Origin: Bacillota bacterium
GTDB lineage: Bacteria > Bacillota > Limnochordia > Darwinibacteriales > Darwinibacteriaceae
Reading direction: 5' to 3'
NCBI GenBank assembly: GCA_012520315.1
Contig: JAAYOM010000113.1
Location: forward strand, 1-57,833
DNA length: 57,833 bases
The position numbers and the translations under genes were made by a program. The notes beneath the pieces are model-generated. The model worked only from the letters and a program-made list of their open reading frames with translations. It ran no database searches and was not told the DNA's origin. Shown one piece after another: positions 17,440-31,263 of this stretch (the first letter of the stretch is position 1; every line of letters begins with the position of its first letter).

Positions 17440-17886
17440 ATGAAAGTTATTCTTCAGGCAGATGTAAAGAAGATTGGCAAAAAGGGTGATGTGGTTGATG
17501 TGGCAGAGGGATACGGCCGCAACTACCTTATACCTAGGGGTCTGGCTGTGGAAGCCAGTGCAGGAAACCTGCGGCAGGTGGCTGAGGTGAAAAGGGCCGA
17601 GTCCACCAGGGCAGACCGGGAGCTGAAAGAGGCGGAAAGAATAGGAACCACCCTGCAGGATCAGACAGTGAAGGTTACTGCTAAAGTCGGAGACGGAGGC
17701 AGGCTCTTCGGTTCTATTACAACCCAGGAAATTGCAGAACAGCTCCGCAAGCAGTTCTCGGTAGAAATTGACAAGAGGAAAATTGATGTCCAAGAGCCAA
17801 TTAAGACGCTGGGTTCACATCCTGTGACTGTGAAAGTCCATCCCAAAGTCCATGTGACGGTCACGGTGGAGGTCACACCTCAGTAG
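17440..17886 (+). CDS. rplI: 50S ribosomal protein L9
   Basis: MKVILQADVKKIGKKGDVVDVAEGYGRNYLIP, GRLFGSIT. Confidence 0.98.
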   Translation: MKVILQADVKKIGKKGDVVDVAEGYGRNYLIPRGLAVEASAGNLRQVAEVKRAESTRADRELKEAERIGTTLQDQTVKVTAKVGDGGRLFGSITTQEIAEQLRKQFSVEIDKRKIDVQEPIKTLGSHPVTVKVHPKVHVTVTVEVTPQ

Positions 17887-17924: not shown

Positions 17925-19853
17925 TTGGATACAAAACAACTGACAACAAACCAAACACTCTCTGACTTCAAACCTTCATTAGAAAAACATGTTTCAGCGC
18001 TCTTAACGCTGCTAGCGGAGGTACACGGACACGATCAGCTGGTCTTGAAAGCGGGCAAGCTTGATTCACTGGAACTTATGCAGTCAGAAAAAATCGAAGA
18101 TCGGGTTCTGGCCCTGGAACGTTTGGTCCTCGAGGATCCAACCATCGTCGAGCACAGGCAGCCGGAGGAAGTAGATGAAGTCCTCAGTGAACTGGAGGAT
18201 CATCTTGCTGATCTCTTGGCCAAACGCGCGGTGGAAGATCAAATTGAGGCAAAGGTCAGCGCGAAAATGCAGGAGCGCCATCTGGAGTATGTTCGGGATA
18301 TTCGCACCCAGGTGCTGAAGGAAGAAGGCGGGCCTGATAATGCCCAGACACTGAAAAAGTACGCTGAACTGGAGATTTTGGAACAGCGCGGCCTTTCCCG
18401 TTCTAGCGTGGATTTAATGCGACCCCAAAGACTCGATGAAGTTATCGGTCAAGACGATGCGATTAAATCGCTCCTTACCAAATTGAGTTCGCCCTATCCT
18501 CAGCACATTTTGCTCTATGGTCCTCCTGGAGTTGGCAAGACTACTGTGGCCCGCCTGGCGCTGCAGGTTGCTAAGTCTAAGGCCTACACTCCCTTCGCCG
18601 AGGATGCGCCCTTTATTGAGGTGGATGGAACAACGCTTCGCTGGGATCCCAGGGAGGTAACCAATCCCCTGATTGGCTCAGTCCATGATCCGATTTATCA
18701 AGGGGCCAGGCGTGATTTGGCAGATGGGGCAGTGCCCGAACCTAAACTGGGTCTGGTGACGGAAGCACATGGGGGCGTACTTTTTATTGACGAAATTGGA
18801 GAGCTGGACCCTGTCTTGCAGAACAAGCTCCTCAAGGTTCTTGAAGATAAGAGAGTTGACTTCGAGTCCTCCTATTACGATCCCCATGATCCGAACATTC
18901 CTAAATATATTCATCAGCTCTTTACCCAGGGTGCACCTGCAGACTTTGTTCTCATCGGTGCTACAACCCGGGATCCCTCCGAGATCAGTCCAGCCTTCCG
19001 TTCTCGCTGCGCCGAGGTGTTTTTTGATCCGCTTACGCCTGAAGATATTGTACAAATCGTGCAGGCGGCGGGGGAGCGTTTAGATGTGGCGCTCGAACCT
19101 GGTGTAGCAGAATTGGTGGCTGAGTATACAATTGAGGGCAGGAAGGCAACGCGCCTTTTGGCTGATGCCTTTAGCGCCGCGCTCTACAGAGACGACGGCG
19201 GTCCAGGAGAGGTGATCGTTACCACTGCTGATATGCGGGAAGTGATCCAGTCTGCCCGTTTGAGCTCCTTCAGCGGTGCGAAAGCTTCTGACAGCAGTGA
19301 AGTAGGCCGTATTCTCGGCCTGGGCGTCAGCGGCTATCTAGGTTCGGTCCTAGAGATTGAAGCTGTAGCATTTCCCAGCAAAGAGCCTGGCAAAGGCCGG
19401 GTTCGCTTTAACGATACGGCAGGAAGCATGGCAAAAGACAGCGTATTTAATGCTGCTTCCGTCTTCCGTGCTTTAACAGGTCAGAACTTGGATGATTTTG
19501 ATGTCCATGTCAATGTTGTTGGCGGGGGAAACATCGATGGGCCTTCAGCAGGCGTAGCAGTCTTGGCGGCCATTATCAGTGCCGTTCGGGATCTGCCCAT
19601 TCCCCAAGACATTGCCGTTACCGGCGAGCTCTCGCTAAGGGGCAAGGTGAAGGCGATAGGCGGTTTACACGCCAAGATTTATGGTGCCAAACACGCTGGA
19701 GTTAAGAAGGTGTTTGTGCCTAAAGAAAACATGGACAACCTTCCCCAGTTTACTGGTGAAGTTGAAGTGATTCCCATTGATGACGTCTCCGAGTTTCTAA
19801 CCTTCATTTTCCCCCAGGACTCTGCCAAGACCTCTCGATTGATCGCTAATTAG
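17925..19853 (+). CDS. lonC: Lon-family ATP-dependent protease LonC
   Basis: GPPGVGKTT, FIDEIGE, Ser motif DGPSAG and Lys in GLHAKIYGA; follows rplI as in many clostridia. Confidence 0.9.
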   Translation: MDTKQLTTNQTLSDFKPSLEKHVSALLTLLAEVHGHDQLVLKAGKLDSLELMQSEKIEDRVLALERLVLEDPTIVEHRQPEEVDEVLSELEDHLADLLAKRAVEDQIEAKVSAKMQERHLEYVRDIRTQVLKEEGGPDNAQTLKKYAELEILEQRGLSRSSVDLMRPQRLDEVIGQDDAIKSLLTKLSSPYPQHILLYGPPGVGKTTVARLALQVAKSKAYTPFAEDAPFIEVDGTTLRWDPREVTNPLIGSVHDPIYQGARRDLADGAVPEPKLGLVTEAHGGVLFIDEIGELDPVLQNKLLKVLEDKRVDFESSYYDPHDPNIPKYIHQLFTQGAPADFVLIGATTRDPSEISPAFRSRCAEVFFDPLTPEDIVQIVQAAGERLDVALEPGVAELVAEYTIEGRKATRLLADAFSAALYRDDGGPGEVIVTTADMREVIQSARLSSFSGAKASDSSEVGRILGLGVSGYLGSVLEIEAVAFPSKEPGKGRVRFNDTAGSMAKDSVFNAASVFRALTGQNLDDFDVHVNVVGGGNIDGPSAGVAVLAAIISAVRDLPIPQDIAVTGELSLRGKVKAIGGLHAKIYGAKHAGVKKVFVPKENMDNLPQFTGEVEVIPIDDVSEFLTFIFPQDSAKTSRLIAN

Positions 19854-20128: not shown

Positions 20129-21475
20129 ATGGCAATTCAAGACTGGCGCGATTTAGAGCGCCTAGTATTGGCACGGGACTTTAAGACGATCAAAACTGCA
20201 TTGCCCAGTTTTCAGGATGCAGATATCGCTGCTTTTTTGGATGAGTTAAGCCGCGAGCATACGGTCATTGTCTTTCGCCTATTATCCAAAGACCGGGCGG
20301 CAGAGGTTTTTTCCTATCTTTCCATTGAGATGCAAGAGTATATTGTTGGGGCGATTACAGATCAAGAAGTGGGCACCATCATCGATCAGCTTTTTGTGGA
20401 TGATGCCGCCGATTTCTTGGAGGAAATGCCCGCCAGTGTCGTTAAAAGGGTGCTCCGGAACGCTTCCCCGGAGACGAGATCCCTAATCAATCAGTTTCTC
20501 CAGTACCCGCCCTATTCCGCGGGGAGCATCATGACAGCAGAGTTTGCCGACTTGAAAAAGACGATGACTGTGGCCGACGCCTTTATGCGCATTCGGCGCA
20601 CTGCACTTGATAAAGAAACAGTTTATACCTGTTATGTGATTGACGGCAATCGGCGTCTGGAGGGTGTTGTTACAGTCAAGGAACTTTTTTTGGCCGATGA
20701 GGCTGCAATTATTGGCGATATAATGGAGACCAAAGTCATTTCCGCCCGGACCAGCGATGATCAGGAAGATGTGGCAGGACTCTTTTCCCGCTATGACTTC
20801 TTGTCGCTGCCTGTGGTGGATGAAGAAAACAGATTGGTTGGCATTGTCACCTTCGACGACATCATGGAAGTTATTCATCAGGAAGCTACGGAAGACTTCC
20901 AGAAAATGGCGGCAATGGCCCCGTCAGAGAAGCCCTATCTAAAGACGGGTGTCTTTACCCTGGCCAAGCATAGAATCGGTTGGCTGATGGTGCTCATGGT
21001 CACCGGCATGGTGGTGGGCGCGATTTTGGCCCGCTATGAAGAGGCGTTTTTGGCAGTCCCTCTCCTGGTCACCTTCATTCCTATGCTTACCGATACGGGC
21101 GGCAATTCGGGCTCCCAAAGTTCAACTTTGGTGATCCGCGGTCTGGCCCTGAAAGAAATCACGGTCAGCGACTTCGGACGGGTTCTCCTGAAAGAGCTGG
21201 GCGTTGGGGCCCTGGTGGGCCTTGCTTTAGCTGCAGCTAATTTCTTACGCCTTGTCATAACCTATCCAGGCGATTATATGCTCGCCTTAGCTGTTTCCCT
21301 GGCGCTGTTTGCCACTGTGATTATAGGCAAGACCGCGGGAAGTATGCTGCCTCTGCTGGCGAAAATAGTTAAAGTGGATCCGGCCATCATGGCTGCTCCA
21401 CTTATTACCACAATCGTAGATGCCAGTGCTTTAGTAATTTATTTTAAAGTCGTAGAAGTTTTGCTCCTTAACTAA
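20129..21475 (+). CDS. mgtE: Magnesium transporter MgtE
   Basis: AGSIMT, tandem CBS, GIVTFDD, DTGGNSGSQ, PAIMAAPLITTIVD; RBS AAGGAGG. Confidence 0.96.
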   Translation: MAIQDWRDLERLVLARDFKTIKTALPSFQDADIAAFLDELSREHTVIVFRLLSKDRAAEVFSYLSIEMQEYIVGAITDQEVGTIIDQLFVDDAADFLEEMPASVVKRVLRNASPETRSLINQFLQYPPYSAGSIMTAEFADLKKTMTVADAFMRIRRTALDKETVYTCYVIDGNRRLEGVVTVKELFLADEAAIIGDIMETKVISARTSDDQEDVAGLFSRYDFLSLPVVDEENRLVGIVTFDDIMEVIHQEATEDFQKMAAMAPSEKPYLKTGVFTLAKHRIGWLMVLMVTGMVVGAILARYEEAFLAVPLLVTFIPMLTDTGGNSGSQSSTLVIRGLALKEITVSDFGRVLLKELGVGALVGLALAAANFLRLVITYPGDYMLALAVSLALFATVIIGKTAGSMLPLLAKIVKVDPAIMAAPLITTIVDASALVIYFKVVEVLLLN

Positions 21476-25224: not shown

Positions 25225-27099
25225 ATGATCATTCAGGATTTATGGAAGTTTTATGGAGATGAACTAGTTTTTCAAAATGTCAGCGCCAATATTGGCCCTG
25301 CCGATCACATAGGTTTTGTAGGGGCTAATGGCGTGGGAAAAACCACACTCCTCAAAACCCTGGTGGGCGAACTTAGCGCCGAACGGGGCCAGGTCATTTG
25401 CCCCGGCGGGTATACATATGGCTCCCTCTGGCAGACGCCGCCTGCAAATATGCAGTCTTTGCAGGAGTATTTGCTAGAACCCTTTGCACACCAAGTTGAA
25501 TTGGAGCAGAACATGCGGGCGCTAGAGCAAAAAATGGCTGAGCTAGGTCAGGGCCCAGAGCTTGATCGGGCCATAGAGGACTATGCCCGCCTGCAGGATC
25601 GCTTTGAACATCAGGGCGGCTATGATTACTTGGTGCAGATCAGCAGCATCACCACAGGACTTGGTTTTTCTGAAGCAGACTTGGCCCGCAGGCTCCACAC
25701 CTTCAGCGGAGGGGAGCAGATGCGGGTAAGTTTAGCTCGCCTACTTTTAACAAGGCCTTCCCTTTTGGTGCTGGACGAGCCCACCAATCACCTGGACGTA
25801 GAAGCCATCCAATGGCTTGAAGACTTTCTCGGGGCCTATCAGGGGGCCTTTATAGTGGTGTCCCATGATCGCTACTTTTTGGACAAGGTGGCCACAACCA
25901 TTTGGGAGCTGCAGCAGCACAAACTTTATCAGTACAAGGGCAATTATTCTGCCTACCTTCCCCAGCGTGAACTGCGGCAGGCCCAAATCGAGGAGAACCT
26001 GGAGAGGCAAGAGCAGGAACGGGCCCGCATGGAGTTTTTTATTCAAAAATTCAAAGCAGGAACCCGCTCCCGGCAGGCCAAGAGTATGGAAAAGAAACTG
26101 GCCCGCCTGCCCGATATTGAGCGGATTTTAGAGGATCCGGCCATGGCCTTCCGTTTTGAACCGAAGCGGCAGTCAGGCAATAACATCGTCTTCTTAGAGA
26201 GAATATGCAAAGCCTATGGCGAAAACCTGGTGCTGAAGGACATTAACGCCGAAATCAAGCGGGGGCAGCGGATTGCTCTCCTAGGCCCAAACGGGAGCGG
26301 CAAGAGCACCCTTCTGAAGATCCTAGGAGGGGAGCTTGACTATGAAGGCGAACTGCGGTGGGGAACAGGCGTCGATGTGGGCTATTTCTCTCAGCATATT
26401 ACCTTCGACCCTGCAAATACTGTTTTAGAGGAACTCTACGCTGAGCACCGCCTGGATTTGGGCGTGCTCCGTTCGGTTCTGGCCCGCTTTTTGTTCAGGG
26501 GCGAAGATGTGTTCAAGCCCACATCTGTGCTCAGCGGCGGCGAACGAAATCGCCTGGCCATGGCCAAATTACTGCTGCACCGGCCAAACCTCCTTCTGCT
26601 GGATGAACCCACCAACCATCTTGATGTTTTTGCCAGGGAAGCTCTAGAAGATGCCCTGGCAGAGTTTGGCGGCACCATAATCTTTGTTTCCCATGACCGT
26701 TACTTCATTGATAAACTGGCGACGAAGATCTGGACATTAGACGGCGGCACTCTCCAAACATTTGCGGGAGGCTTTTCTGACTACGAAGAAAAGCGCAAAC
26801 AAGCAGCTTACTCCCGGGCCCAGGCCGCTGAAAGGAGCCATAAAGAAGAGCAAAAACAGCGTTTTTCCGGACCTTCCCCTAACGAGCTGCGAAGAATCGC
26901 CAAAGCCCGGGCAGAACTGGAGGATGAAATAGTCTGCCTGGAAGAGCGCAAAGGAAAGCTTGAAGCCTTGTTGGCTTCACCCGATCTCTATCAGGATGGA
27001 GAAGAAGCGGCTGTAGGAATCATCCAGGAGTACCAGGAGGTTAAGGATGCTTTGCAGGATAAATACATTGCCTGGGAACGTTTGGTGGACGAGCATTGA
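25225..27099 (+). CDS. ABC-F family ATPase
   Basis: Two ABC domains (GANGVGKTT/FSGGEQ/LDEPTNH and GPNGSGKST/LSGGER/LDEPTNH), no TM segments, C-terminal coiled coil. Confidence 0.92.
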   Translation: MIIQDLWKFYGDELVFQNVSANIGPADHIGFVGANGVGKTTLLKTLVGELSAERGQVICPGGYTYGSLWQTPPANMQSLQEYLLEPFAHQVELEQNMRALEQKMAELGQGPELDRAIEDYARLQDRFEHQGGYDYLVQISSITTGLGFSEADLARRLHTFSGGEQMRVSLARLLLTRPSLLVLDEPTNHLDVEAIQWLEDFLGAYQGAFIVVSHDRYFLDKVATTIWELQQHKLYQYKGNYSAYLPQRELRQAQIEENLERQEQERARMEFFIQKFKAGTRSRQAKSMEKKLARLPDIERILEDPAMAFRFEPKRQSGNNIVFLERICKAYGENLVLKDINAEIKRGQRIALLGPNGSGKSTLLKILGGELDYEGELRWGTGVDVGYFSQHITFDPANTVLEELYAEHRLDLGVLRSVLARFLFRGEDVFKPTSVLSGGERNRLAMAKLLLHRPNLLLLDEPTNHLDVFAREALEDALAEFGGTIIFVSHDRYFIDKLATKIWTLDGGTLQTFAGGFSDYEEKRKQAAYSRAQAAERSHKEEQKQRFSGPSPNELRRIAKARAELEDEIVCLEERKGKLEALLASPDLYQDGEEAAVGIIQEYQEVKDALQDKYIAWERLVDEH

Positions 27100-27114
27100 G
27101 GAAAGGTGAGGAAT

Positions 27115-27807
27115 ATGGCTGGCGCAAAAAATAAAGGTGTTCTGCTGCGAGGGGTGAAGGGTCTGCCGATTCAGGTACCCGGGGAAATCCTCAAATGTCA
27201 GGCGGACTTAGGCCCCACAGCGACCTTGGTCTGGATCAATCTTGTGGCCTTTTCCCAGTTGGGGCAGGCTTTTCGCATTAACTCGCTGGCCCGGCAAATG
27301 GGTTTGCCAAAGCGGGAAGTAAGTCAGGCCCTGGCCCTTCTGGCCGACAGGGGCTGGATTAATGATGAGGGCCTGGAAATTCGGCTGACGGTGCAGGCTG
27401 AGGCAGAGAGCTTAGATCCGGTGCAGGAAGAAGTTGCAGCGGCAGCTGAGCCTCTTGTCAATGGCGAATCTGATGCCTATGAATGGCTGGTCAGCTATAT
27501 ATCTGCCAGGATCACCGTTCCCACCCCTGAGGAACAGCGGAAACTTCTGTATTGGATGCAAAGCAAGAGCCTGTCCCATGAGGTAATTGCAGTTGCCATT
27601 GAGGAGATGTGCGCTTCCGCCGCGCATCCTAGCTTCCCTTATTTAGAAGGTATTCTCCGCAATTGGCATGGTGTAGGCATCCGCACTTATAATGACCTTT
27701 TAGAAAATCCCTACCTGGCTAAAGTGCTGGCCCCGATTGCCGGCGGCAAAGATGTAAACTCTGCGGAAAAACGTTGGAGGGAGGTTTTCCCCGATGAATT
27801 TGACTGA
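27115..27807 (+). CDS. DnaD-like protein (N-terminal winged helix plus C-terminal DnaD/DnaB_2-like domain)
   Basis: wHTH-like SLARQMGLPKREVSQALALLADRGWI; DnaD-type YLEGILRNWHGVGIRTYNDL. Start is GTG 27106 or ATG 27115. Confidence 0.75.
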   Translation: MAGAKNKGVLLRGVKGLPIQVPGEILKCQADLGPTATLVWINLVAFSQLGQAFRINSLARQMGLPKREVSQALALLADRGWINDEGLEIRLTVQAEAESLDPVQEEVAAAAEPLVNGESDAYEWLVSYISARITVPTPEEQRKLLYWMQSKSLSHEVIAVAIEEMCASAAHPSFPYLEGILRNWHGVGIRTYNDLLENPYLAKVLAPIAGGKDVNSAEKRWREVFPDEFD

Positions 27808-29170
27808 ACAATTAACCTATGAACTGCCGATGGACTTAAGTGCAGAGCGCCAAATCTTAGGCATCTTGATCAAACACCCTGCCCAAGTCGATCGGGTGGT
27901 TGATCGCCTCCGGCCCGCACACTTTATGGATCCGGCCCATCGACGGATTTATGAAATCATTCTGGATATTTATAATAAACAGGGGCGGATTTCTTACACC
28001 CAAATCTATAACCGGCTTCATGCCGACTCCATTACAGATTCCCCGGCAGAACTGCTGATCCCCTTGACCGAATCCTTTGTAGCCCTTAGTGAGCTCGAAC
28101 CTAGCCTGGAGATTCTCCTGCACAAGGAGGGTATCCGCAGGCTTGTCCAGGCCTGCGACGCGGTGAAGGCCTTGGCATTGGATCCGAAGAATGAAGATTT
28201 GGAATTAATTCAGGCCAAGGCCCAGGAGCGGATCTTTGCGGCAACGCAGAGCATCGATGCTACAGGCGATGATGTGAAGAACCTTCTAGAGGTTTTGAAT
28301 AAGTGCTACATCAATCTGCTCAGGCGCCGGGAAGGCGATCTTGATGCCTATGGACTTTCGGTGCGCTTTCCGTCCATTGACGGTATGACCACCGGCTTTA
28401 AGAAGAAAGACCTGATTATTCTGGCCGCCCGGCCGTCTATGGGCAAAACCGCTTTGGTCTTGAACATGGCAGCCAATGTGGCCAAGCGCGACATTCCGGT
28501 ACTTTTCTTCAGCCTCGAGATGGATGATGAACAAATCGGCGACCGGATTGTCCTTAGTGAGCTCTTTGCCCATAAAGAAGGCGAACAGCACTTAGTCACC
28601 TCCCATGAGTATCAGGGGAGACTCAGTGACGAACAGTTTATGGTCACCCAAAAAGTATTTAACGAACTCTACCACTTACCAATTTCCATCGTAGACAAAC
28701 GGGGCATGACCGTACCTGAAATTAGGGCCAAGGCCAGAAAATTTAAGGCAGAAAATGGCAATTTGGGCCTGATTGTCATAGACTACCTGCAATTAATCAA
28801 GCCTCCGGATAACTCCTCCCGGAGCTGGACCTTAATTGTAGGGGAGATGGTGCGGGAACTTCGGGATCTGGCCGGTGAGCTTGATGTGCCCATCATCCTT
28901 TTGTCCCAGCTGAACCGGGGCGTAGAGAGCAGAGAAAACAAGCGGCCCATGATGTCTGACCTGAGGGATTCAGGGAATATTGAGGAATTTGCTGACGTGA
29001 TCATGTTTCTCTATAGAGATGACTATTATAATCCTGAAAAGGCAAGGGCGGAGGGAACGGAAGGATTAGTCGAAGTGATCTTCGCCAAGCAGCGCAAAGG
29101 CAGCACCGGCACAGTGCAGCTGCGCTTTATCAAAGAATACACCCGTTTTATCGATGAGTATACAAAGTAG
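27794..29170 (+). CDS. dnaB: DnaB-family replicative helicase, divergent
   Basis: AARPSMGKT, FFSLEM, VIDYLQL, LSQLNR, SDLRDSGNIE, AKQRKG; N-terminal P...AER.ILG. Confidence 0.88.
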   Translation: MNLTEQLTYELPMDLSAERQILGILIKHPAQVDRVVDRLRPAHFMDPAHRRIYEIILDIYNKQGRISYTQIYNRLHADSITDSPAELLIPLTESFVALSELEPSLEILLHKEGIRRLVQACDAVKALALDPKNEDLELIQAKAQERIFAATQSIDATGDDVKNLLEVLNKCYINLLRRREGDLDAYGLSVRFPSIDGMTTGFKKKDLIILAARPSMGKTALVLNMAANVAKRDIPVLFFSLEMDDEQIGDRIVLSELFAHKEGEQHLVTSHEYQGRLSDEQFMVTQKVFNELYHLPISIVDKRGMTVPEIRAKARKFKAENGNLGLIVIDYLQLIKPPDNSSRSWTLIVGEMVRELRDLAGELDVPIILLSQLNRGVESRENKRPMMSDLRDSGNIEEFADVIMFLYRDDYYNPEKARAEGTEGLVEVIFAKQRKGSTGTVQLRFIKEYTRFIDEYTK

Positions 29171-29371
29171 GTGAAGCTCGTGGGTGATTTGAACCGGACG
29201 AAGTTGATTTTCTTAGATACCTGCCGCAACCTGGTTGAGCTTGGCGAGTTATCGAAAGAAGAGTATTTTGAGATCTGCGATCTTTTGGATCGTTTGGAGG
29301 AACTTGACAACGAAGAGTTTAAAGCAGAGTTACGCAGGATCAGTAAAGGTCTTAGTGATCTGATCGGCTAG
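29171..29371 (+). CDS. 66-aa acidic helical protein of unknown function
   Basis: GTG directly abuts the helicase TAG; fills the gap to rsmA; amphipathic-helix pattern. Confidence 0.75.
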   Translation: MKLVGDLNRTKLIFLDTCRNLVELGELSKEEYFEICDLLDRLEELDNEEFKAELRRISKGLSDLIG

Positions 29372-29381
29372 GGGGGCACCA

Positions 29382-30245
29382 ATGTCGCACATCACCAATC
29401 CATCGTATATCACAGGCATTATGAAAGAGCGGGGTTTTAGCACCAAGAAGCGTTTTGGGCAAAATTTTCTGATCGATCAAAATATTGTAGAACGCATTAT
29501 CCAAAGTGCCGGTTTGCAGCGGGGGGAATGGGCCCTGGAAATCGGTCCCGGCCTAGGGGCCCTCACTGTGCACCTGGGAGAGCAGGCTGACCATGTGGTG
29601 GCCATTGAAATTGATTCGAATTTAGTGGACATCTTAGAGGAGACTTTGGCCAGTGAGAAGATCACTATTTGGGCTGGAGATGCTCTAGAGGAAAATTGGG
29701 AGGAGCTCTTGGGCAGCTGCGGCTGGCAGGGGCAGCCCCTCAAATTTGTAGCAAATCTCCCCTACTACCTCACCACGCCCCTGATTATGAAAGCTCTTGA
29801 GAGTGAATTGCCCTTTACCTCCCTGGTTGTCATGGTGCAAAAGGAAGTTGCCACGCGCATGCTGGCTTCGGCAGGGAGCAAAGACTTTGGTATTCTCTCC
29901 CTGGTTGTGCAATACTACTCCACAAGCAGCCTGGTGATGAATGTGCCTAGAACGGTGTTTATTCCTGCACCTGCCGTTGATTCAGCAGTGGTGGAGCTTG
30001 TACCCCGTGCCCCGGAGGTGGATGCGCCTCGCACTGAGCTTTTTGCGGTTATTCGGGCAGGTTTTGGTCAGAGACGCAAAACAGTGCGCAATGCCCTCAA
30101 GCCCTTGGCTAAAGAGTGGGGGATTTCCCTGGAGGGGCTCGACCAGGCCTTCCTGCAGGCAGAAATCAACCCTGCACACAGAGCGGAACGGCTGTCACTG
30201 GAAGATTTCAGCCGCCTAACTAAAGAACTCTTGAAGGGAGTGTGA
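29382..30245 (+). CDS. rsmA: 16S rRNA dimethyladenosine transferase RsmA/KsgA
   Basis: KRFGQNFL, EIGPGLGALT, ANLPYY, MVQKEVA, GQRRKT. Confidence 0.97.
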   Translation: MSHITNPSYITGIMKERGFSTKKRFGQNFLIDQNIVERIIQSAGLQRGEWALEIGPGLGALTVHLGEQADHVVAIEIDSNLVDILEETLASEKITIWAGDALEENWEELLGSCGWQGQPLKFVANLPYYLTTPLIMKALESELPFTSLVVMVQKEVATRMLASAGSKDFGILSLVVQYYSTSSLVMNVPRTVFIPAPAVDSAVVELVPRAPEVDAPRTELFAVIRAGFGQRRKTVRNALKPLAKEWGISLEGLDQAFLQAEINPAHRAERLSLEDFSRLTKELLKGV

Positions 30246-30718
30246 ACAAAGTGGAGTTTATCAGTCCGACGAAAGGGCCCATGACCTTTGACCAGGTGTT
30301 CGAAGAGATTATTTCCTATGCGTCGGCCCATCCCGAAGACAATTACCGTCTGATTGTGGGCACAGACTCACAGTTTCGGGAAGAAACCTGCTTTGTCACC
30401 GCCCTGATTGTCCACCGCCAAGGGAAGGGCGGCAGGTTTTTTTACACGCGCAGCTATGACCGGCACGCCCGTTCTTTGCGGCAGAGAATCTTTTATGAAG
30501 CTTCCCTGAGCCTGAGTGTGGCATCACTGCTAACTGACAAGCTGGCCAGCCATGGTCAGGAACTCAATTTAGAAATTCATTTAGATGTGGGAAACAACGG
30601 AGCTACTAAGACATTGGTTAAGGAAGTGGTGGGCATGGTCAACGGATCCGGCTACACCTGCAGGATTAAGCCCGATTCCTACGGTGCTTCTTCGGTAGCA
30701 GATCGGTATACCAAATAG
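30242..30718 (+). CDS. RNase H-like YkuK-family protein
   Basis: IVGTDSQ, HRQGKGG, EIHLDVG, ASSVADRYTK. Confidence 0.85.
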   Translation: MNKVEFISPTKGPMTFDQVFEEIISYASAHPEDNYRLIVGTDSQFREETCFVTALIVHRQGKGGRFFYTRSYDRHARSLRQRIFYEASLSLSVASLLTDKLASHGQELNLEIHLDVGNNGATKTLVKEVVGMVNGSGYTCRIKPDSYGASSVADRYTK

Positions 30719-30784: not shown

Positions 30785-30852
30785 TTGACATTGGGCTGGA
30801 GCATTGATAAAATGTTATTTTAATTGACAAACAGCCTCTTTCATGGTAGAAT
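30785..30852 (+). promoter_or_regulatory. Tandem sigmaA promoters of veg
   Basis: TTGACA(30785)-N17-TAAAAT and TTGACA(30824)-N17-TAGAAT, both with TG extension. Confidence 0.88.
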
Positions 30853-31239: not shown

Positions 31240-31263
31240 AAGCACCGAAAGGTGCTTTTTTTT
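31240..31263 (+). terminator. Intrinsic terminator after veg
   Basis: AAGCACC-GAAA-GGTGCTT then a T-run. Confidence 0.85.

Follow-up and report, generated by a model that had tools for sequence, protein, structure and literature searches.

The DnaD-linked replicative helicase of Limnochordia: a probable canonical Firmicute loading pathway in a new operon layout, with a candidate helicase partner

How is the replicative helicase loaded in a bacterium whose helicase gene is missing from its usual place and follows a dnaD gene instead? The question is raised by the 57,833-nucleotide (nt) contig JAAYOM010000113.1 (the window, in which all positions are counted along the forward strand) of a Bacillota bacterium. 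Its lineage, Limnochordia/MBA03, includes ‘Ca. Darwinibacter acetoxidans’ and ‘Ca. Wallacebacter cryptica’ and is represented by metagenome-assembled genomes (MAGs) from anaerobic digesters (PMC12663870). The element under study is a cassette of three genes encoding a DnaD protein, a DnaB-family helicase and a small acidic protein. A first-pass annotation had proposed a non-canonical, possibly phage-derived loading system, fixed in the core genome.

To our knowledge, helicase loading in Firmicutes is understood almost entirely from Bacillus subtilis and a few pathogens. The reading that best fits the present results, and that we regard as probable, is that the cassette belongs to the canonical Firmicute DnaA-DnaD-DnaB-DnaI pathway, set in a new operon layout and accompanied by a candidate helicase partner. 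A search of a literature collection returned no description of the dnaD-helicase-small open reading frame (ORF) arrangement. What is new is a class-wide coupling of dnaD to the helicase gene, a distinct clade of DnaD-linked helicases and a small protein family strictly associated with them.

The helicase, DnaD and the loader genes

The helicase gene (27794-29170, +) runs from an ATG to a TAG and encodes 458 residues with the N- and C-terminal DnaB domains (PF00772, E 1e-15; PF03796, E 3e-85), in which the GKT and DYLQL motifs are readable. The protein barely meets the cut-off of TIGR00665 (385.3 bits against 385.25) and, in an NCBIfam scan, falls far below the cut-offs of all lineage-specific PRK models. 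Its best solved relative is Geobacillus DnaB (E 3e-75, residues 12-454), ahead of the SPP1 phage helicase G40P. It is the counterpart of B. subtilis DnaC and the only DnaB-type helicase in the genome (G000; an assembly of 2.33 Mb, 88% complete); in nearly all relatives the helicase is likewise single-copy, and its tree is congruent with kinship. The usual upstream neighbours of the replicative helicase gene, rplI (17440-17886, +) and lonC (17925-19853, +), both recognised by Pfam matches, are followed directly by mgtE (20129-21475), which occupies the helicase’s customary place and confirms that this site is empty.

The first gene of the cassette, dnaD (27106-27807, +), is a DnaD orthologue, on which profile and fold agree. 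Its 233-residue ORF opens with a GTG; the likelier start is ATG 27115, which is preceded by a Shine-Dalgarno (SD) sequence, GGTGAGGA, and at which several relatives begin. The protein matches PF07261 (DnaB_2/DnaD, E 2e-13) and TIGR01446 (E 4e-9), with a match to HTH_36 (E 1.2e-4) that at 22.3 bits lies below the Pfam cut-off of 25. It consists of a winged-helix domain (residues ~25-95), a disordered linker, a DDBH2 domain (~119-200) and the C-terminal tail RWREVFPDEFD. An AlphaFold2 (AF2) model shows the same succession, with a helical DDBH2 domain and a short tail helix; its top Foldseek matches are B. subtilis DnaD (9a5c_B) and G. stearothermophilus DnaB (5wtn), and its match to the C-domain of S. 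mutans DnaD (2zc2) has a TMt of 0.86 and a root-mean-square deviation of 1.3 Å. A profile built from 19 orthologues (alignment A1) aligns to full-length B. subtilis DnaD (8ojj) over residues 16-216 with E 2e-8. In these 19 sequences, which reach from order to class level, YLEGILRNW, an instance of the YxxxIxxxW motif, is invariant, as are the tail residues W224, E226, P229 and D230.

The DnaD protein of B. subtilis inserts its final eight residues (225-232), among them the essential W229, between two helices of the C-terminal DDBH2 domain of the DnaB protein, here DnaB(Bsu) (PMC13326638). By this analogy the conserved tail of the window’s DnaD is a putative docking motif, in keeping with the first impression of its acidic-aromatic end, WREVFPDEFD. 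The form [RK]-W-K-E-[LM]-[YF]-x-D-E-[YC] is kept in nearly all lineages further away, also where a lineage was detected only by its helicase.

The dnaD and helicase genes overlap by 14 nt, ATGAATTTGACTGA, and an overlap of 8-29 nt is present in all 20 relatives’ loci examined. The arrangement is far beyond chance and recurs in every relative examined. As read from the sequence, the initiation region of the helicase (27775-27796, +) lies within the tail-coding end of dnaD, where the triplets for W-R-E double as the SD sequence, GGAGGGAGG, and those for D-E contain the ATG. The stretch 27775-27807 is one sequence with two uses, the conserved DnaD tail and the SD/ATG of the helicase. Conservation of the tail solely for encoding these signals was considered and rejected, because the tail is equally conserved where the overlap varies between 8 and 29 nt and at more distant loci, in which the match to DnaD has already ended before that to the helicase starts.

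Two observations concern DnaD in relatives. The class-level proteins (L083-L126) share a second motif, (Y)EGxPNAxAY, about 20 residues before RWKELYPDEY, which is missing from the window’s order. In-frame stops interrupt an otherwise conserved dnaD in two genomes, a TAG in G036 (L041:4574-5296, -) and a TGA in G038, and could reflect an assembly error, a pseudogene or recoding.

The remaining loader genes lie on contig C113 (~31.06-32.28 kb; L014:5065-6277, -), where a gene for a 309-residue DnaI/DnaC-type AAA+ protein overlaps one for a 160-residue DnaD-domain protein. The genes around this pair, alr, acpS, glmM and nagAB, are not those of a phage. The AAA+ protein matches PF01695 (E 1e-11) and stays below the cut-offs of all NCBIfam equivalogs; its best PDB matches are Aquifex DnaC, E. 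coli DnaC and the DnaI proteins of Bacillus, Geobacillus and S. aureus. A look for the N-terminal Zn-binding, helicase-interaction domain of the DnaI type showed a readable CxxC...CxC cluster, here and in the Halanaerobium and Proteinivorax homologues, that is matched by no domain model. DnaI probably starts further downstream than its longest ORF, because that ORF is overlapped for ~200 nt by the 160-residue ORF; relatives have stops in this N-terminal stretch. The DnaI-like gene is kept throughout the order, and 39 of 41 relatives have a single copy of it. The 160-residue gene adjoins it in all five same-genus relatives checked, and a weak DnaD-profile match lies beside it in two genomes of the same order. 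A second ORF of the genome that passes the IstB_IS21 cut-off is found on C99 (524 residues).

The 160-residue protein is composed of one DDBH2 domain and an aromatic-acidic tail ending in FTWLDE, and was the only DnaD relative, a weak one, returned by a six-frame hidden Markov model (HMM) search of the genome. No DciA (PF05258/DUF721) is found in the genome at E 0.1, whereas the 7 of 14 control genomes that possess DciA do score. This agrees with a published rule, by which loaders of the DnaC/DnaI type are found in genomes that lack DciA (Brezellec et al. 2016, PMC5109545). With one helicase, two DnaD-domain proteins, a DnaI-type loader and no DciA, the Firmicute parts list (DnaD, DnaB(Bsu)-like protein, DnaI, helicase) is complete, and the system is not loader-free. 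The idea of a non-canonical loading system is accordingly not supported, as the AAA+ protein and the second DnaD-domain protein are conserved as a pair elsewhere in the genome.

Distribution and phylogeny of the DnaD-linked helicases

Is the arrangement a local accident or the rule of its lineage? Among 41 relatives, dnaD is found in 39 and the helicase in 40, and whenever a genome, out to class level, shows both, they are neighbours. A scan of public loci, limited to one genome per species and using two conserved DnaD peptides as patterns, yielded 80 loci, and in all 80 the helicase gene lies immediately downstream of dnaD. Through the order, the string ddl-abcF-dnaD-helicase-small ORF-rsmA-RNaseH-like-veg is syntenic.

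Of 151 genomes sampled evenly across the phylum, 13 have a helicase at least 55% identical to that of the window, and a recognisable DnaD is encoded directly upstream in 12 of them. In the thirteenth, G112, no DnaD-profile match accompanies the clade-type helicase, and the 327-residue ORF upstream of it has no Pfam match. The view of G112 as an exception lacking DnaD was nonetheless dropped: the ORF is probably a very divergent DnaD, as suggested by two tail-like motifs in its sequence, RWVAAHPELYDD and RWAEAFPAEYEAY. The helicases of the remaining genomes are 29-45% identical to the window’s, and all 30 of the other chromosomal helicases checked from this sample follow rplI or rplI-lonC. The trio is thus the ordinary arrangement in Limnochordia and allied lineages and not elsewhere in the sample. 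An arrangement ordinary across Clostridia, which the first-pass annotation had named as refuting its proposal, is not what these loci show, the trio being absent from all 30. The block is inherited vertically through MBA03/Darwinibacteriales, the class Limnochordia and allied Bacillota MAG lineages, and the proposal that the cassette is fixed in the core genome holds.

Three loci with a Limnochordia-type module carry incongruent taxonomic labels: L122 is titled Kiritimatiellia, L141/G112 has a protein titled Betaproteobacteria and L086 is titled Syntrophothermus. The MAGs are probably mis-binned or mislabelled.

The gene order of the cassette resembles a phage replication module, and this resemblance is all that speaks for a relic of a prophage or another integrated element, with a secondary helicase here and a canonical one elsewhere. 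Such a relic was rejected and has next to no probability: the genome has a single helicase and the rplI site of the window is empty, G+C is flat across the window (0.48-0.54) without a compositional anomaly, all neighbours of the cassette are housekeeping genes, and synteny extends across genus, family, order and class. The distribution is not patchy either, and the original remark that no phage genes lie nearby was correct.

The wider relationships were examined in a maximum-likelihood tree of 70 helicases (LG+C20+F+G4), which is unrooted and leaves out cellular helicases of other phyla. The DnaD-linked helicases form one clade (support 100/97), whose internal order follows kinship. A second clade (100/100) comprises the sole helicases of Halanaerobium, Proteinivorax tanatarense and a MAG; the pairing of the two clades as sisters is weak (57/70). 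Both clades, together with two prophage helicases from genomes of the DnaD-linked lineages, are separated from the rplI-linked and other phage helicases by a branch of 0.73 with support of 100/99. What emerges is a separate class of helicases associated with DnaD-type genes. Compared with rplI-linked helicases, the DnaD-linked proteins have a 9-residue insert at ~258-266, a 4-residue insert at ~418-421 and 26 fixed differences. The window’s helicase is 33-45% identical to the rplI-linked helicases of the phylum, about as much as to phage helicases, among which the best match reaches 37.5%.

The long branch admits an ancient exchange, in which a phage or plasmid module of a winged helix-turn-helix (wHTH)-DnaD-like initiator, a helicase and, optionally, the small protein displaced the rplI-linked dnaB in the ancestor of Limnochordia, Halanaerobium and Proteinivorax and was then domesticated. 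The order of a DnaD-like gene followed by a helicase is typical of phage modules and of secondary copies in the phylum: in Paenibacillus phage Willow, Cellulophaga phage phi39:1 and the prophage L183, a wHTH/DnaD-domain gene overlaps or abuts the helicase gene. The grouping of both prophage helicases with the DnaD-linked side points the same way, as does an identity to rplI-linked helicases no higher than that to phage helicases. In the prophage-like locus L183 (L183:2084-5296, -), an HTH_36 + DnaB_2 protein overlaps the second helicase of its genome and a single-stranded DNA-binding protein (SSB) follows; in the prophage-like module L186, DNA-methylase-like ORFs lie nearby.

Against a mobile origin, neither DnaD nor the helicase has a close phage relative, and phage matches to DnaD cover only the DDBH2 domain, at most 37% of the protein. 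The window’s DnaD has the full B. subtilis architecture and tail; the tail is absent from the prophage DnaD-like protein, as a comparison of C-termini shows, and phage copies also lack the small ORF. The window’s helicase, unlike those of phage modules, is the sole one of its genome, chromosomal, vertically inherited and in a housekeeping context, and its best solved relative is a cellular protein and not G40P. The placement of the prophage helicases (L183 from genome G177; L186 from G006, of the window’s genus) is uncertain because of their very long branches, and phages could equally have captured a host-type helicase. Fast evolution after relocation would account for the 0.73 branch equally well, and this unrooted tree, drawn without cellular helicases from other phyla, does not distinguish it from xenologous replacement. 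For the suggested phage ancestry, the long split with two prophage helicases speaks in favour, and the absence of any phage helicase above 37.5% identity, together with strictly vertical inheritance, speaks against. A mobile origin is considered unlikely. The division into rplI-linked and DnaD-linked helicases is also relevant to a wider question, whether genes of the replication core can be replaced or only change place.

The nearest cellular helicases in the sample, those of Halanaerobium and Proteinivorax, are likewise not linked to rplI. They are encoded in operons with a DnaB_2-domain protein and a DnaI-like ATPase, and the first protein of these operons aligns with the window’s DnaD over both domains (hhalign E 1.6e-12). 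These operons differ from the window’s in that the DnaI gene stands between the DnaD/B-like gene and the helicase, and in that the first protein has an extra DDBH2 domain, as in DnaB(Bsu). In Proteinivorax and one MAG, unlike the window, the helicase is fused to a DnaG-type primase. At L143:2965-5478 (-) (Proteinivorax tanatarense), L144 and L147:2953-5493, the sole DnaB-type helicase is a fusion of 837-846 residues, which joins a DnaG-type primase (Zn ribbon, DNAG_N, Toprim) to a complete DnaB N+C helicase and is encoded after the DnaB_2-domain protein and the DnaI-like ATPase.

A small acidic protein behind the helicase

What is the third gene? The small ORF (29171-29371, +) spans 66 residues from a GTG that abuts the helicase TAG, and both its presence and its position are as first described. 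The start given at that time is less well placed: GTG 29180 has an SD sequence, AGGTGA, at 5-nt spacing, relatives begin with MGD..., and a database copy (P0034) has 63 residues. Because GTG 29180 is the better supported start, the abutting GTG is probably part of the SD sequence of the small ORF, with a true gap of 9 nt behind the helicase.

The resulting 63-residue protein has an isoelectric point of 4.4 and a net charge of about -7. Its 18 orthologues align with a mean column identity of 50% (alignment A2), with K11, F14, L39 and L54 conserved. An AF2 model shows four short helices at a pLDDT (predicted local distance difference test) of 86. The ORF is single-copy in the genome, where a six-frame HMM search detected no paralogue. 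The 126 homologues, all of 55-85 residues, are almost all called hypothetical and none has a Pfam domain; three carry stray names, probably mis-assigned. Among representative proteins, 1.84 billion in all, the family accounts for only 63 clusters. The small ORF is a real gene, and its product a new, unannotated family.

Searches of the small protein against Pfam, NCBIfam and PHROGs gave no significant match, including none to DciA/DUF721 in the first two, and a Foldseek search of its model against the PDB gave nothing below E = 1. With 63 residues and no AAA+ domain, it differs from DciA and DnaC/DnaI alike. Weak matches to SHOCT, XkdX and phrog_21914 (E 0.003-0.2, none significant) fall on 29225-29260, about residues 19-36, LVELGELSKEEYFEICDLL; the SHOCT/XkdX-like stretch reads G-x-L-S-x-E-E-Y, and phrog_21914 is itself unannotated.

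The position of the gene was surveyed by applying the family HMM to helicase loci that extend past the helicase. The small ORF is found directly 3' of the helicase in every DnaD-linked locus, 74 of 74 in the public set and 10 of 10 in the phylum sample, and again after the Halanaerobium helicase. With the same HMM, no such ORF was detected behind any of 30 rplI-linked, 9 secondary and 8 phage helicases, nor behind the primase fusions of Proteinivorax and the related MAG. This strict pattern ties the small ORF to this helicase type.

The alternative is a passenger of the operon, which serves rsmA and ribosome maturation, sporulation or regulation and owes its position to history. No homology, fold or fusion links the small ORF to replication, it lies 10 nt from rsmA in the window’s order, and tight gene strings near the origin do mix unrelated housekeeping genes. 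The gene tracks the helicase, however, and not rsmA: in class-level relatives and in G112, rsmA is 1-2.4 kb away, and the small ORF still begins 0-90 nt after the helicase (242 nt in L091). Its recurrence in Halanaerobium, in a different operon context, and its absence after every other helicase type sampled also argue against a passenger, which we hold to be rather improbable. Were the small ORF nonetheless irrelevant to replication, an unusual but unsurprising variant of gene order would remain.

Two further candidates were discarded. The small protein is not a detached helicase-binding domain of DnaG, as DnaG retains a C-terminal region resembling the DnaB-binding domain; the dnaG ORF on contig C44 encodes at least 569 residues and runs off the contig end. 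An apparent fusion of 545 residues (P0167), the one long match with a single clean hit at an end, is a frameshift-ridden helicase with read-through into the small ORF and not a true fusion. The other long matches to the small ORF are multi-stretch or low-complexity.

From its strict position, the small protein is proposed to be a helicase-binding accessory that modulates loading or activity, which makes it a candidate new replisome or loading factor. A broader claim joins two parts: that the protein is an unrecognised subunit or regulator of the DnaD-linked helicase class of Limnochordia, allied Bacillota lineages and Halanaerobium, and that the cassette descends from a self-contained replication module, possibly of a mobile element, that displaced the ancestral rplI-linked dnaB. 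This combination is considered unlikely.

A possible loading pathway and the flanking genes

In the favoured reading, a canonical pathway in a new layout, the sole helicase would be co-transcribed and translationally coupled with the upstream dnaD and the downstream small protein within a string of housekeeping genes. This layout replaces the linkage of the helicase to rplI that is found elsewhere in the phylum sample. DnaA would recruit DnaD, whose tail, R-W-K/R-E-x-F/Y-P-D-E-F/Y-D, would then dock on the DDBH2 domain of the 160-residue DnaB(Bsu)-like protein. By analogy with B. subtilis, such docking on the C113 protein is probable. The latter would hand over to the co-encoded DnaI/DnaC-type AAA+ loader, which would place the helicase on DNA, and the small protein would act as a direct helicase partner, modulating loading or activity.

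The likeness to B. subtilis is considerable. DnaD has the same length, the same two-domain architecture, the YxxxIxxxW motif and a Trp-bearing C-terminal tail; a DnaB-family helicase is present and DciA is not. The C-terminal tail of DnaB(Bsu) binds DnaI (PMC13326638; PMC10201434), and the joint encoding of a DnaD-domain protein with a DnaI-type AAA+ loader on C113 repeats the logic of the dnaB-dnaI operon. The differences lie in the layout and in the parts themselves. In B. subtilis, dnaD is far from the helicase gene, which follows rplI, whereas here the two appear translationally coupled. The DnaB(Bsu) counterpart has 160 residues, roughly the C-terminal domain and tail of the 472-residue B. 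subtilis protein, the helicase belongs to a divergent clade, and a conserved 63-residue protein is added after it.

Several points weigh against this reading. The assembly is only 88% complete. At E 1e-10, a search for the DnaI-like gene gave no match in the two same-class genomes of other orders. The helicase is unusually divergent, so that the biochemistry of the helicase and its partners may differ from the B. subtilis model. Finally, the role of the small protein is argued from gene position alone, since it shows no detectable homology or fold match.

If the favoured reading holds, a deep-branching class keeps the same parts list, rearranged and trimmed, as a natural minimal loading system. 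DnaD would be coupled stoichiometrically to the helicase, and DnaB(Bsu) would be reduced to one DDBH2 domain and a tail. This mini-DnaB corresponds to the part of B. subtilis DnaB to which the DnaD tail and DnaI bind, so the interaction-hub model could be tested with it.

The cassette is embedded in a tight gene string. Directly upstream of dnaD lies an ABC-F ATPase gene (abcF; 25225-27099, +), which is syntenic with the cassette throughout the order. Downstream, rsmA/ksgA (29382-30245, +) starts 10 nt beyond the small ORF, as had been reported from the ORF list along with the 14-nt overlap, and is overlapped by 4 nt by a PF04308 RNase-H-like gene (30242-30718, +). From abcF to the RNase-H-like gene, the intergenic distances are 15 (or 6), -14, 9 (or 0), 10 and -4 nt, the values in brackets applying to the longer ORFs. 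A promoter and terminator search from ddl to the RNase-H-like gene gave no match above chance, and strong promoters, those of veg, appear only after the latter (30785, 30824). Co-transcription of dnaD, the helicase gene and the small ORF is likely. The two veg promoters lie in tandem at 30785-30852; they are near-consensus and of the sigma-70 type, with 11/12 matches and an extended TG each. A terminator-like hairpin is present at 31240-31257.

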